From: Candidatus Saccharimonadota bacterium
GTDB lineage: Bacteria; Patescibacteriota; Saccharimonadia; Saccharimonadales; Saccharimonadaceae
DNA length: 64,000 nucleotides
Direction of reading: 5' to 3'
NCBI GenBank assembly: GCA_030531645.1
Contig: JAUNNB010000002.1
Coordinates: forward strand, 8,988 to 72,987
Notes under the pieces: model-generated
Databases searched by the model: none
What the model saw: the letters and a program-made list of their open reading frames with translations, nothing else
Told to the model about the DNA's origin: nothing
Shown: positions 1 to 33,859 of the stretch, piece by piece
How positions within the stretch are numbered: the first letter of the stretch is position 1
Layout of the letters: every line of letters begins with the position of its first letter
Program-made: the position numbers and the translations under genes

Positions 1-94
1 TGTCGTCGCCTAGACAATAATGTTCTCATCTCTTTTGGACTAAGCTGATCAATACGCTTAACCCACCCACCTTTGACAAGGAGCGGAATCGTGC

Positions 95-388
95 CTAAAA
101 TGGCATATCCTCAGTGGTCGCCCTATCGACATCATCTTCAGTTGGAATTACATCCTTTGATGCGGCTTCGGCTTTTGCTACTTGAATAGACACGCCGTCA
201 TCTTTAAAAATAGACACTATCTTCGGCTCAGATGTTGCAGTCGCATGAAGCTTGATGAACATCGATGATCCATGAGGGGAGGAGAGAAGAACGCCAACCT
301 CGTGATAGCGATTCTTCTCAACCCCGTCCTTTTTGTAAGTTCCGTTTTTAACTTTTAGTGTACCGATTTTACTAAACACTTCAGCCAT
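95..388 (-). CDS. Phage single-stranded DNA-binding-like protein
   Basis: 97 aa, beta-rich N-terminus and acidic tail ending EDMPF, typical of SSB C-termini; AAGGAGG RBS; downstream of the exonuclease/annealase genes. Confidence 0.55.
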   Translation of the reverse strand: MAEVFSKIGTLKVKNGTYKKDGVEKNRYHEVGVLLSSPHGSSMFIKLHATATSEPKIVSIFKDDGVSIQVAKAEAASKDVIPTEDDVDRATTEDMPF

Positions 389-412
389 TTTTACCTCCTT
401 TGAAGCACCTTA

Positions 413-496
413 TTATCGACGGTTGTCTTCGCCAACCTTCATTTCAAGTTGACGCTCATACCAATAGTTATACGCTCGAATTGTCTCTTCACTCAT
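413..496 (-). CDS. 27-aa phage microprotein MSEETIRAYNYWYERQLEMKVGEDNRR
   Basis: Not in the ORF track; ATG overlaps the end of the upstream ORF (AATGAGTGA), is preceded by AAGAGG, and the ORF fills the gap before the SSB-like gene. Confidence 0.45.
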   Translation of the reverse strand: MSEETIRAYNYWYERQLEMKVGEDNRR

Positions 497-692
497 TTGA
501 CCTCTTTTCCGCTTTTAACTGTGCAAGTATTGCCGCCGATTTCTCAGGCTCAAGCGCATTAACGATTTCCGCTGCATTGGCATCGATTCTAAGTTGTATA
601 CCATCGTAATCTAATCTGACCTGCGCAAATAGATAGTTGATAAGCACATCGTATTTGACTGACTTATCGATGATCTCTAGATTAATATCCAT
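489..692 (-). CDS. Hypothetical phage protein (67 aa)
   Basis: In the operon with RBS AAGGGAG; no recognisable motif. Confidence 0.65.
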   Translation of the reverse strand: MDINLEIIDKSVKYDVLINYLFAQVRLDYDGIQLRIDANAAEIVNALEPEKSAAILAQLKAEKRSNE

Positions 693-703
693 ATTCTCCC
701 TTC

Positions 704-1495
704 TTAAAAGCTTAGATTTTCGATTTGCTCTGCGAGATTGTTGATACGTTGCAAGGCTACTTTCTCGAAAGCTTTTGCTTCTATGAGTTTCGCATCGACG
801 TCTTCTCGTTTAATATCAAAAATTTGAAGTTCCAAACCCGGAATTACATCCGTGTAGACAATGAAATGTAAGACTTCCAAATCTTCGTTGACCATGAAAT
901 ACTTGAGGACTTGTGGCTCATATTCAGTAGGATAGTGATTTTCTGCATAGATCTTCACAATCTCAGCCGAGCCGAGGCATTTAACCTCGCAAGCTTCACG
1001 GACTTTGCCGTCTTCGCTAGTAATGCAGCCATCTGGCGACACATAGGCTGATTCATCGTAGTCTGAAACCCAAACTACAGATTCCTTATCGATTTTCTTG
1101 CCGGTCTTTTCTTCAAAGGCCGCTAGTGCTTCAGGCTCAAGGATGTGGCCTCGTGCCATCATGCTGAATGGCTCACCACCAAGCTGTTCAACATAATCGT
1201 TTGGAGTAATTGGTCTCGCAACTCGTTCCGCTACGATTTCGTAGAATCGCTTCTTTGGCTCGCCCTCAAGTTTTAGCTCAGCTAAGTCTTCCGGCTCAAG
1301 CATTCCAGCAAGCTCTTTGACCGTAAGTTTTTTATCCGCCGGTGGAAGTGGCTGAAATTCTTCAAGTTTTTCAACTACTTTGGCTTTGAGCGGTAAACCG
1401 GGAATCCACAAATCTTTAAATTCGGATCCGCCGGACTTACCCTTACGGAACTCTAGCCATTCTTCGCTATTTTGCTGGAGTTTTATTACTTTCAT
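704..1495 (-). CDS. YqaJ-like viral recombinase / lambda-exonuclease family
   Basis: Motifs QNSEEWLEFRKG, MARGHILEPEA, SPDG and EVKC match the YqaJ PD-(D/E)XK pattern. Confidence 0.85.
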   Translation of the reverse strand: MKVIKLQQNSEEWLEFRKGKSGGSEFKDLWIPGLPLKAKVVEKLEEFQPLPPADKKLTVKELAGMLEPEDLAELKLEGEPKKRFYEIVAERVARPITPNDYVEQLGGEPFSMMARGHILEPEALAAFEEKTGKKIDKESVVWVSDYDESAYVSPDGCITSEDGKVREACEVKCLGSAEIVKIYAENHYPTEYEPQVLKYFMVNEDLEVLHFIVYTDVIPGLELQIFDIKREDVDAKLIEAKAFEKVALQRINNLAEQIENLSF

Positions 1496-2081
1496 TTAAC
1501 TCTTCCTTTCTTATATCTTTAGCAACGATAATATCTTTATCGAAACGCATTTCCTTGGACATGTTTTGCCAGACTTTTAATAAAGCTTCCATGCTCTTCG
1601 CTTCAGCTATGTCTTTTAGGATAGCTGCTTTTTCCGCCTCAGCTTTCTCTTTCTTAAAATCTTCAAATTCTTCCATTTCCTCAGAAGTTGCTACCTCACC
1701 AGATGTTGCATAACCAAGCATTGCGAGCGCACGTCCAATAGCTATCGTCTCATTTTTCTCGAAGCCTTTTTCACCTTTAACCTTGGCCGAATACATCAAA
1801 GAGCTCGCTTCTGCATCAGCAGAGTCGAGAGCATCTTTTGAGCTAACGCCAGATTTCAGTAAGTCGTAAAAGTCGGTTTTGTCTCTCCAAACATACGCAT
1901 GATGGATGAGGTCGCCATTTTCACTTACAGAGTACTTAACTGCAATCTTTGAATGAGGGTTTTTCGCACGAAACTCGTTTAAACGATCTGCAACTTTTGC
2001 GTAATCGATTTCTACTGATTTTTTCTCACCAGTTCTCTTATCCGTGTACTCTTTCTTTATCTTCGAAGTTTTAACCTGCAT
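1467..2081 (-). CDS. Putative phage single-strand annealing protein (Rad52/Sak-like)
   Basis: DYAKVADRLNEF and ETIAIGRALAMLG motifs; immediately upstream of the YqaJ exonuclease, as in Red-like modules. Confidence 0.6.
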   Translation of the reverse strand: MQVKTSKIKKEYTDKRTGEKKSVEIDYAKVADRLNEFRAKNPHSKIAVKYSVSENGDLIHHAYVWRDKTDFYDLLKSGVSSKDALDSADAEASSLMYSAKVKGEKGFEKNETIAIGRALAMLGYATSGEVATSEEMEEFEDFKKEKAEAEKAAILKDIAEAKSMEALLKVWQNMSKEMRFDKDIIVAKDIRKEELNESNKTPAK

Positions 2082-2466
2082 AAGCCATCCTCGCTGTTAA
2101 ATCCGCTTCCTTCAGCTTCGAATAACTATTCTCAGCGTCATCCAAAGCCTTACTGATTCGACGATACTTTTTTGCGCATTTTATGACACTTCTGAAATCT
2201 TCGTAACTGAATTCGGTTAGTTGATTCAGCAACTCATTATTATCAGAATTGAACTCGATTTTTGTGGTTGAGTCTTCCGAAGTTAGTCTCTTTAAATAAA
2301 GATTTGCCCTGTGGTATTTGCGAGCAACTTTGACAACACCTCTGAAGCCATCGTCGCTCATATTTATGAGTTTGTCCGCCACTTCTGCGAGTTTCGCAAC
2401 GTGAACGATTTTGACATTAACGGAGCGATCTACGCTTATCACCTCGCTAACGGTAACTTTTGTCAT
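2071..2466 (-). CDS. Hypothetical phage protein (131 aa)
   Basis: First gene of the module, RBS AAAGGA, overlaps the next ORF. Confidence 0.7.
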   Translation of the reverse strand: MTKVTVSEVISVDRSVNVKIVHVAKLAEVADKLINMSDDGFRGVVKVARKYHRANLYLKRLTSEDSTTKIEFNSDNNELLNQLTEFSYEDFRSVIKCAKKYRRISKALDDAENSYSKLKEADLTARMAYAG

Positions 2467-2649
2467 TTTATTCCTTTCACTTCCACTTGACTGGCTCTCA
2501 ACATCCAGTCAAGCTTCGGTAAGATTAAATTGATATTGTGAAGCCTTGACCCTTGTTGCCGACCACTTTAATCGTTGTGCGTCGTGCTGAACAGAGGGCT
2601 TTCGCCTTCTCAGAGATGATAAATTAATTGGCTAGTTATCACCTCAGTC

Positions 2650-2714
2650 AAAGAAAAAAGCCGGCTTTAAACCGGCAAAACAAAACATCCCCCAGAGTAA
2701 TTCCGAAGGATGTT
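2650..2714 (-). terminator. Two tandem intrinsic terminators downstream of tRNA-Lys
   Basis: AACATCC/GGATGTT stem plus T-tract (2677-2714) and GCCGG/CCGGC stem plus TTTTTT (2650-2676) on the minus strand. Confidence 0.7.
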
Positions 2715-2727
2715 GAATATTCTTAAT

Positions 2728-2804
2728 TGGTGAGTCGGGTGGGGTTCGAACCCACGACACCAGGCTTAAGAGGCCCGTGCTCTGACCAACTGAGCTACCG
2801 ACCC
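2728..2804 (-). tRNA. tRNA-Lys(CTT)
   Basis: Full cloverleaf: acceptor GGGTCGG/CCGACTC, anticodon arm CGGGC-CTCTTAA-GCCTG, T-loop TTCGAAC, encoded CCA. Confidence 0.95.
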
Positions 2805-2831
2805 AAATTGTAAAATACAGGGGTGAGCAAT

Positions 2832-2874
2832 TATCTTAATAGGTAAGTGCTCTAACCAGCTGAGCTACCGGCCC
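2832..2874 (-). pseudogene. Truncated tRNA 5' half (candidate att junction)
   Basis: GGGCCGG-TA-GCTC-AGCTGGTTA-GAGC-A-CTTAC-CTATTAA: acceptor 5' strand, D arm and anticodon loop are present; no T arm or acceptor 3' strand follows. Confidence 0.75.
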
Positions 2875-2886
2875 TCACCTCGAATT

Positions 2887-2915
2887 ATTATATCACGCTC
2901 AGCTGGATTTTTCAA
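2887..2915 (-). promoter_or_regulatory. Sigma70 promoter for the tRNA half and tRNA-Lys
   Basis: TTGAAA-17 bp-TATAAT with extended TG. Confidence 0.75.
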
Positions 2916-2920
2916 GCGTT

Positions 2921-3841
2921 TTAAGTCCACAAACCGCGTTTCTTAGCGCCTTGGAACTCTTTTAGGAGTTCTTTTTGTTTCTTGGACATATTTGTAGGGG
3001 TATCGACTGTGACGGTTACGATATGTGGGCCGCGATCGCCATCGGTGCGCATAACCATACCATGGCCAGAGAGCTTGAATGGAGTACCGCTCTGGGTTCC
3101 GGCTGGGATCTTCATAGTCACAATACCATCGATAGTCTCAACATCAACTTCACAACCAAGGGCTGCATCTACCATTGGCACATGGATTTCGGAAAGGATA
3201 ATGAATCCTTCACGACTGAGAGTCTTGTGTGGTTTGACACGAACTTGAACATAAAGGTCACCCTTGGTGCCGCCTTTTTCAGGTGGTTCCCCACCGTAGC
3301 CGGTTAAGCGAATGGCTGCACCATCTTGAATGCTGGCAGGAATCTTAACCTTGATATCGCGACCAGAAACAGAAACGCTCTTAGTAGTACCGAAAACGGA
3401 CTCTTCGAATGTAATTGTGACTGAGGTTTGAAGATCTTGGCCACGATTGGCACGACGACGTCTGGCGCCACCGCCGAATCCGAAGAGGTCGCCTAGAATA
3501 TCATTCAAATCTACGCCACCGCCACCAAAATCGAAATGGACATTTTGGCCGTTGTAGCTATATGAACCACCGAATGGATTGCCACCACCAAATGGGTTAC
3601 CACGGTCGTCGGCACCGACGCCAGCAAAACCGAATTGGTCATAGCGAGCACGCTTTTGTTTGTCGGATAAGACTTCGTGAGCTTCGGTGGCTTCCTTAAA
3701 CTTGGCTTCAGCTTCTTTATCACCTGGATTGCGATCTGGGTGGTATTTCATAGCTAGCTTGCGGTAAGCCTTCTTAATCTCGTCATCACTAGCGCCCTTG
3801 CTGACGCCTAGGACTTCGTAATAATCTTTTTTACTTGCCAT
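2921..3841 (-). CDS. dnaJ: DnaJ-class co-chaperone (type II, no zinc finger)
   Basis: J-domain with HPD, G/F-rich linker, C-terminal domain; no CxxCxGxG repeats. Confidence 0.9.
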
Positions 3842-33214: not shown

Positions 33215-33859
33215 ATGGTTAGCACATTACAGACTTATAAGTTGTTATTGATTGAATTGGTTGAGAAGGTATGTCTTTTAGATTCTATCTATAAGGATTA
33301 CGCTACTTGCGAAGATCTCATTAGTATTCTGGAGCCTTATTTCGAGACAAAGGAATTACCACATGTCGCACCTGAAGATTTATTTGCAGAGTACGAAGGT
33401 AATCTCAAGGAGATGTTGGTGAATGCTGAACCGATTTTGAAGAGCGACTACGGCTATGTAATGGGCTTTCCCAGTCTCGTCCAAGCTGCGCATCGTCTTC
33501 ATGAATCATACTTTTCAGCAAAACACTTAATGAAGCTCACTAGAGATAACTTCACAAGTTTCGTCCTGACACATTTCAAGAGTAATCTAAACGAATTCGT
33601 TCTTAATCCGGGCCCCAAGACTGCATCGGAAACAGGGTTTAACGAGCTCGTTCATGAACTCTCCTGCGTGAAAAAGGATGGTGATGAATCTATCAACCGC
33701 GAGCGCAAAGCTCGCAGAAAGTATTATCTTCACACCTTAAAGGAAGCTAATCCTGGTGATGAAATCCCGACTCTCCTCGAGCTCGAGACCGGCTTCTCTA
33801 TCTGGTACGAATCAATTATCAATGACTGCCTAGTAGTCGGCAACTTCGGACCCGTGTAG
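33215..33859 (+). CDS. Hypothetical protein (214 aa)
   Basis: TTGACT-17-TATAAT promoter, GGAAGGGGG RBS. Confidence 0.65.
   Translation: MVSTLQTYKLLLIELVEKVCLLDSIYKDYATCEDLISILEPYFETKELPHVAPEDLFAEYEGNLKEMLVNAEPILKSDYGYVMGFPSLVQAAHRLHESYFSAKHLMKLTRDNFTSFVLTHFKSNLNEFVLNPGPKTASETGFNELVHELSCVKKDGDESINRERKARRKYYLHTLKEANPGDEIPTLLELETGFSIWYESIINDCLVVGNFGPV

Follow-up and report, generated by a model that had tools for sequence, protein, structure and literature searches.

At one edge of a prophage, the first part of a tRNA gene stands behind a promoter and is closely followed by a complete gene for tRNA-Lys(CTT). Whose gene is the complete one, and what became of the rest of the broken gene? The locus lies in a window of 64,000 nucleotides (C2:8988-72987) from a 771-kb (0.77-Mb) genome, here called G000, which is 99% complete and comprises 12 contigs. 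Our answer, which we hold to be very probable, is that the prophage split the host's only tRNA-Lys(CTT) gene without rebuilding it and put a complete tRNA-Lys(CTT) of its own after the host promoter.

The junction in the window

Coordinates without a contig name are those of the window. From the host side into the prophage, the features are:

2921..3841, minus strand: host dnaJ (Pfam DnaJ and DnaJ_C, E = 1e-30 to 1e-37)
2887..2915, minus strand: host tRNA-Lys(CTT) promoter, TTGAAA-17-TATAAT with an extended TG (promoter scan, 11/12 matches)
2847..2874, minus strand: 5′ remnant of the host tRNA-Lys(CTT), 28 nt (acceptor 5′ strand and D arm, tRNA positions 1-28)
2847..2857, no strand assigned: attL common core GGTTAGAGCAC (minus-strand reading), the same 11 nt as at C9:18715-18725 (attR)
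2805..2846, minus strand: phage attP right arm, 42 nt, non-tRNA, with an anticodon-loop-like CCTATTAAG and a CTCACC motif
2728..2804, minus strand: complete phage-borne tRNA-Lys(CTT) (ARAGORN; Rfam tRNA, 68.3 bits, E = 1e-14)
2714-2684 and 2676-2660, minus strand: two intrinsic-terminator-like hairpins that close the tRNA transcription unit (terminator scan)
1..2659, minus strand: prophage early genes, transcribed away from attL (Pfam and PHROGs)
2071-2466, minus strand: prophage 131-aa ORF of the early-gene region
1467-2081, minus strand: prophage 204-aa ORF of the early-gene region
704-1495, minus strand: prophage YqaJ-type exonuclease (Pfam, PHROGs)

The last host gene before the tRNA promoter is dnaJ, and further to the right come grpE, hrcA and clpP, all ordinary host genes. 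The promoter, described as a consensus one in the initial annotation, proved to be near-consensus and is the sole promoter-like match within 2300-3100. Its -10 box and the bases that follow are kept in the attL of a related prophage (contig k141_626554, below) and upstream of the intact tRNA-Lys(CTT) of the relative G007; because of the latter conservation, we assign the promoter to the host tRNA gene. Upstream of the phage tRNA, no promoter now lies closer than this one.

The 28-nt remnant reads GGGCCGG (from 2874), continues through a full D arm and ends in AC. The intact genes of five relatives (G005, G019, G004, G006 and G007) start with exactly these 28 nt (100% identity), and neither ARAGORN nor the Rfam scan (E <= 10) calls the remnant a tRNA. 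Directly after the core, the DNA diverges from the host tRNA, and the 42-nt arm contains no T arm. In free-phage contigs, an equivalent arm of 45 nt connects attP directly to the phage tRNA. The locus had been read as a tRNA 5′ half at 2832-2874, cut at an anticodon loop CTATTAA. That reading holds for 2874-2847, which is host tRNA, but 2846-2832 is attP-arm DNA, contiguous in free-phage relatives; the loop-like CCTATTAAG belongs to the phage arm, and the exchange is in the D arm, at the core GGTTAGAGCAC.

Like the host gene, the complete tRNA gene encodes the CCA and has A73 and a G2-U71 pair. All elements of the initial annotation, this tRNA, the two terminators and the phage genes among them, are present on the minus strand at the positions given there. 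A homologous tRNA adjoins attP in the unintegrated contigs G241, L091 and L092, the same terminator pair follows it in G241 and L091, and the prophage genes of the window are collinear with the viral contig G241 and with the k141_626554 prophage.

Two further features of the leader were considered. A GGTGAG/CTCACC repeat, thought to close the tRNA half into a hairpin, is indeed present, but the leader folds no better than shuffled sequences (z = -0.66; 46/200 shuffles fold equally well). On this result, and because one arm of the repeat is host DNA and the other phage DNA, the hairpin is an unsupported feature. The second idea, that the right arm of the G000 attP is a decayed tRNA 3′ half (CCTATTAAG ... 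GCTCACC), is unproven, and the resemblance is absent in G241.

The far end of the prophage

If the host gene was cut, its 3′ part and an integrase would be expected at the far prophage end, as the initial annotation had foreseen. Both were found on another contig:

C9:18715-18783: 3′ remnant of the host tRNA-Lys(CTT), at attR (genome-wide search)
C9:17537-18448: tyrosine integrase, 303 aa (PF00589, E = 3e-30; phrog_1, E = 8e-39)

The 3′ remnant spans the D loop to the CCA, and its overlap with the end of the C2 remnant is exactly GGTTAGAGCAC. Its 3′ acceptor strand, CCGGCTC, pairs with GGGCCGG of the C2 remnant with one G-U pair. Behind the integrase, attR keeps the 3′ 60 nt of the host gene (core included). 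Rfam finds only a local match here (30.8 bits, model positions 8-63), in which the D stem is broken and the acceptor stem is missing; ARAGORN calls no tRNA at either the attL or the attR junction. The genome contains no further tRNA-Lys(CTT) 3′ fragment.

Pfam matches of the integrase are only to SAM-like and catalytic domains. The residues that we take to be catalytic (R, H-x-x-R, H, Y) are invariant between two aligned integrases, and int lies next to attP in the free-phage contigs. A second tyrosine integrase of G000 (C6:90062-90898; 48% identical to that of the prophage) is situated 1.5 kb from tRNA-Phe(GAA) (C6:92413-92488) and may mark another integrated element.

Beyond the integrase, C9 codes for TerL, an SPP1-type portal, a Mu-F head protein and a tape measure, while C2:1-11700 carries tail proteins, a CHAP lysin, a resolvase-like protein and the YqaJ module. 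The prophage thus extends over C2:1-11846 and C9:1-18714, 30.6 kb as assembled, compared with 33.6 kb in relatives. No overlap joins the ends C2:1 and C9:1, which have only a 12-nt word in common. Since the two G000 junctions lie on different, non-overlapping contigs, we infer the linkage of the prophage halves from relatives.

Several other features of the prophage deserve mention. A gene with an NYN (RNase-like) domain is found near the contig end (C9:58-576), and a family-2 glycosyltransferase gene together with a Stealth-CR2-like gene lies between terminase and integrase (C9:14588-16104); these genes are possible surface-modifying morons. The int-attP spacer (C9:18449-18714, L009) is conserved across the family (L056, L070, L091, L071 and L072). 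It contains a terminator after int, a promoter directed toward attP (TTGACA-17-TACACT, extended TG) and motifs such as GAAGATTAACAATCT, which could be Int arm sites or a small RNA. In the prophage, the spacer promoter reads outward across attR into host DNA.

In the tail region (C2:1-5951 and C9:1-1333; G241:1-5534; L086:13300-17200), C2 and G241 break at nearly the same point, which falls in the C-terminal domain (Gp10_C) of a DUF859 tail protein. Compared with G000 and k141_626554, G241 has its tail and lysin module inverted, and relatives have a stray 70-aa Gp10_C fragment on the opposite strand. AGTAGGAACTTA is common to C2:44-55 and C9:1-12 and would be an inverted repeat in the joined prophage. 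The tail-fibre tip looks invertible or cassette-switching; no invertase gene for such switching was seen.

The host gene before integration

Joined through the shared 11 nt, the two remnants make a 77-nt tRNA-Lys(CTT) (ARAGORN), which is 100% identical to the intact tRNA-Lys(CTT) of G005 and G019, both of the same genus; the intact gene of six further relatives is near-identical. Each of these eight same-genus genomes has one intact tRNA-Lys(CTT), and the arrangement of a partial gene followed by a full one, whose presence there would have counted against a role of the prophage, is absent from all of them. In several relatives, dnaJ lies 3-5 kb from the intact gene.

The right host flank of G000 (C9:19021 onward) adjoins tRNA-Lys(CTT) in no sampled relative, being located elsewhere, and an empty site with both G000 flanks was found in none of them. 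Nothing in G000 corresponds to the DNA that follows the intact gene in relatives. Two same-genus genomes have additional short copies of the tRNA-Lys(CTT) 3′ end immediately after that gene (G005:C13:1037-1060 and G021:C8:5593-5622). The tRNA-Lys(CTT) gene seems to be a hot spot for integration in general, used by classical reconstructing elements as well.

Unintegrated forms and the point of exchange

The origin of the complete tRNA is best seen in phage genomes that are not integrated. In the IMG/VR contig G241 (28.3 kb; integrase 71% identical), the order is int, the conserved spacer, GGTTAGAGCA, 45 nt, a complete tRNA-Lys(CTT), two terminators and the YqaJ module. Its first part is collinear with C9 and the part after it with C2 in reverse complement, which is the circular permutation that an unintegrated genome should show; the full tRNA is therefore phage DNA. 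The proposal that the phage supplied the full tRNA-Lys is thereby upheld: it lies 45 nt from attP and next to int in free-phage contigs.

Most tRNA-integrating elements are known to rebuild the gene, and relatives of this integrase at 46-49% identity stand directly beside complete tRNA-Glu and tRNA-His genes. By analogy, the tRNA at 2804-2728 could be a host/phage hybrid formed at attL by classical reconstructive integration, the upstream 5′ piece being an older relic. That would not account for the whole 77-nt tRNA, 5′ half included, in unintegrated phage contigs, nor for the exact host gene that the upstream piece and the C9 piece make together. The phage tRNA also departs from the host gene in three stems (acceptor, anticodon and T), the 3′ part being 84% identical, and the genome offers no further tRNA-Lys(CTT) 3′ fragment. 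We consider reconstruction very improbable.

Both junctions occur on one DNA molecule in the metagenome contig k141_626554 (44,910 bp), which was recovered by stepwise exact-protein look-ups. Its attL (131-141) and attR (~33770-33780) are 33.6 kb apart. At the left end are the host promoter, the same 28-nt remnant ending in GGTTAGAGCAC, 45 nt and the phage tRNA-Lys(CTT); at the right end are int, GGCTAGAGCAC, the host 3′ part and host type I restriction-modification genes. The joined remnants likewise give a tRNA-Lys(CTT) attB. Three contigs of the same phage, 33,592, 33,608 and 33,614 bp long, have int, attP (GGCTAGAGCAC), 45 nt and the tRNA, with flanks that match attR-left and attL-right with one mismatch per 60 nt each.

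Contig k141_626554 bears on whether the locus has anything to do with a phage. Tandem tRNA genes are common and the G000 junctions are on separate contigs, so one might suspect that a tandem pair of tRNA genes has decayed or that the assembly is chimeric. This explanation, to which we give the least credence of all, is contradicted by this independent 44.9-kb contig that contains in one piece the promoter, the 28-nt remnant, the spacer and the full tRNA, as well as int, the core and the 3′ part. Two more attR-type junctions come from other samples (L070 and L073; integrases 74% identical). From comparison of all these contigs, the four att forms, the absence of reconstruction and the phage origin of the tRNA can be read directly.

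The related phages also help to locate the crossover. The G241 attP shares 10 bp with the G000 core, and the k141/L091 set shares 8 bp plus 2. Position 3 of the core differs (T/C) between host and phage in the k141_626554 prophage, with the host T at attL and the phage C at attR. As each base stays on its own side, strand exchange most likely occurred inside TAGAGCAC (2854-2847), in the D arm.

In all three lineages whose attL or attP side can be read (G000, G241 and k141/L091), the cargo tRNA is intact and lies 42-45 nt from the core. In further searches, a scan of genome contigs with the integrase gave only one distant relative, 22% identical, in a MAG labelled Saccharibacteria; the Lys-type attP arm pattern had no match in the viral-contig scan, and the Ala-type pattern matched only the contig already identified there (see below). 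We also asked if phage tRNAs avoid a perfect core of their own. All three have at least one mismatch to TAGAGCAC, at varying positions; with three related phages, too few for the purpose, this is a weak observation.

Possible dependence of the host on the phage tRNA

ARAGORN found 42 tRNAs in G000, with no other CTT gene; the only other Lys tRNA is UUU (TTT), intact at C6:55600-55676. (tRNA-Tyr and tRNA-Thr(GGT) are missing from the 42, probably lost in an assembly gap.) AAG accounts for 45% of the Lys codons, or 33 per 1000 codons. MnmA is present in G000 and a true MnmG was not found there. By established wobble rules, s2U34 tRNA-Lys(UUU) without the MnmG modification reads AAG poorly; with MnmA and no MnmG, the remaining tRNA of the host would therefore be a poor reader of AAG. 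Host dependence on the phage tRNA is thus plausible but not proven. tRNA-Lys(CUU) is not universally essential, E. coli living with UUU alone, and for this reason the dependence here could be a looser one than in the mycobacterial cases, which concern tRNA-Lys(UUU).

Could the same architecture exist with no dependence at all? The host would then live on its intact tRNA-Lys(UUU), as do some bacteria that decode AAG with modified UUU only, and the phage tRNA would be a fitness aid, an anti-defence gene or a codon-supply gene. Loss of a redundant isoacceptor may be tolerated among relatives, to judge from G354, where an attR-type junction lies in tRNA-Ala(GGC) and no second tRNA-Ala(GGC) is found. 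Yet the CTT and UUU genes are both kept in all sampled same-genus genomes, and the cargo tRNA has stayed intact, and close to the core, in each of the three lineages above. The frequency of AAG and the pairing of MnmA with no true MnmG also argue against relying on UUU for AAG. On balance we think independence unlikely, while giving it far more weight than the other alternatives.

A related puzzle is the choice of target. The 11-bp core, along with its left flank, also occurs in the host tRNA-Lys(TTT), yet the four prophages examined are all in the CTT gene. The preference may come from the attP-like right arm, if it recognises the anticodon arm, or from counter-selection of integrants that the cargo cannot rescue.

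A proposed course of events

Our preferred reading, replacement of the split host gene by the phage tRNA, can be put as a series of steps. A temperate, siphovirus-like phage of at least 30.6 kb would have integrated in the single tRNA-Lys(CTT) gene of the host, its 303-aa tyrosine integrase recombining attP with attB within the tRNA D arm, over a shared core of 11 bp, GGTTAGAGCAC. Because attP has no usable tRNA 3′ part, neither junction is a tRNA. Behind the host promoter, attL retains 28 nt of the host gene. The phage tRNA-Lys(CTT), 42 nt from the core, now stands in the place of the host gene, ~70 nt further downstream of the promoter. As no terminator and no other promoter lie between that promoter and the phage tRNA, it is presumably transcribed from there; it would probably be cut from the transcript by RNase P and 3′ processing enzymes. 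Once aminoacylated, as we suppose it is, the phage tRNA would replace the lost AAG decoder, and lysogens would need it.

Relatives that may use tRNA-Ala

The strategy may not be confined to tRNA-Lys. Two metagenome contigs (L071:4910-5245 and L072:1012-1385; the former is also the 34,106-bp IMG/VR contig L095) have integrases 60-63% identical and the same layout of int, spacer and core. Their core, (C/T)(T/A)AGAGCGC, occupies the same position and differs by one base from TAGAGCAC of the Lys phages; the arm resembles a tRNA-Ala anticodon loop (CCTTGCAGAGC) and is followed by the complete gene for tRNA-Ala(TGC). These phages would thus seem to use the same strategy on tRNA-Ala.

In G354 (99% complete, 50 contigs), a 60% identical integrase (L097, contig C35, ~1684-2060) is followed by TAGAGCGC and the 3′ part of tRNA-Ala(GGC), with no 5′ part. 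A second tRNA-Ala(GGC) was not found in this genome, in which only the CGC and TGC genes turned up; either the attL end is unassembled or loss of tRNA-Ala(GGC) is tolerated. Elsewhere in G354 (L105, contig C20, minus strand), a 13-nt tRNA-like 5′ fragment (GGGGATATTAGCT) stands one base before an intact tRNA-Ala(TGC) and may be the scar of another event.

We would tentatively extend these observations to a general scheme, while thinking it somewhat more doubtful than probable: int, attP and tRNA may form a portable, retargetable cassette in which the core, the anticodon-loop-like arm and the cargo are switched together and the cargo always takes the promoter of the host tRNA. Such a cassette would belong to phages of CPR bacteria, probably Saccharibacteria, and would include the conserved promoter of the int-attP spacer, reading outward across attR.

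Comparison with known systems

tRNA-dependent lysogeny was described in 2024 in actinobacteriophages (Guerrero-Bustamante & Hatfull, mBio, PMC10865867), the examples being Fionnbharth (K4), LeBron (L1), Cain (K6), BrutonGaster and OneUp (CQ2), Mollymur (DL) and Gaia (X). It is defined by a tyrosine integrase, an attB in a tRNA gene, a core of ~10 bp, no reconstruction and a phage tRNA of the same isotype (PMC10865867). In the table of examples, tRNA-Lys genes are targeted most often, and the isotype of the target changes between related phages (PMC10865867). Loss of the phage tRNA prevents the recovery of stable lysogens, giving a clear-plaque phenotype; in Fionnbharth, deletion of the tRNA from an int-attP-tRNA integration construct abolished the recovery of integrants (PMC10865867).

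At the level of sequence, the present locus has the properties by which that system is defined: a tyrosine integrase, an attB within a host tRNA gene, a tRNA rebuilt at neither junction and a complete phage-borne tRNA of the same isotype. The core is 8-17 bp in the actinobacteriophage cases (PMC10865867), 11 bp here and 8 bp in a relative. There are differences as well. The host here has a CPR/Patescibacteria-type genome of 0.77 Mb and is not one of the Actinobacteria. Unlike in the published actinobacteriophage cases, the core is in the D arm (positions 18-28), and therefore the promoter keeps only 28 nt of the host gene. The cargo tRNA is 42-45 nt from the core and behind the host promoter, whereas that of Fionnbharth is elsewhere in the genome and has its own promoter (PMC10865867). 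The broken gene is the CUU isoacceptor; because the UUU gene is still present, the essentiality of the broken tRNA is less certain. The integrase is short (303 aa), while those of mycobacteriophages are said to be lambda-like and to bind arm sites through an N-terminal domain (PMC10865867). Finally, the actinobacteriophage system has been tested experimentally, and the present one is known from sequence alone.

The question of whether tRNA-dependent lysogeny exists outside Actinobacteria was raised in the same paper, which pointed to prophage Lj965 of Lactobacillus johnsonii as a likely case, with a tRNA not rebuilt at the junction and a cognate tRNA encoded (PMC10865867). The likeness to our locus in these two points is by that paper's statement only, and the host phylum and the phage differ. 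Elements of the P4, P22, mycobacteriophage L5 or Boilgate type are alike in having a tyrosine integrase, an attB in a tRNA gene and int beside attP. Their attP, however, carries 40-50 bp of the tRNA 3′ part and rebuilds the gene, whereas here the identity stops after 11 bp. Our literature search found no paper on tRNA-dependent lysogeny in Saccharibacteria or other CPR. The mechanism is a known one, now met in phages of CPR bacteria, the host group being probably Saccharibacteria.

Implications

The locus provides a clean case, from its sequences, in phages of ultra-small CPR bacteria, with attB, attP, attL and attR all recovered. For annotation, it means that a phage gene is the sole tRNA-Lys(CTT) in this genome, the host gene being a split pseudogene. 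Prophage finders that are based on duplicated tRNA 3′ ends will miss boundaries of this kind. We know of almost no genetic tools for CPR-type organisms at present, and the compact int-attP-tRNA cassette, ~1.3 kb in length, is a candidate self-selecting integration vector. As to the biology of the hosts, their minimal tRNA set makes them sensitive to such replacement.
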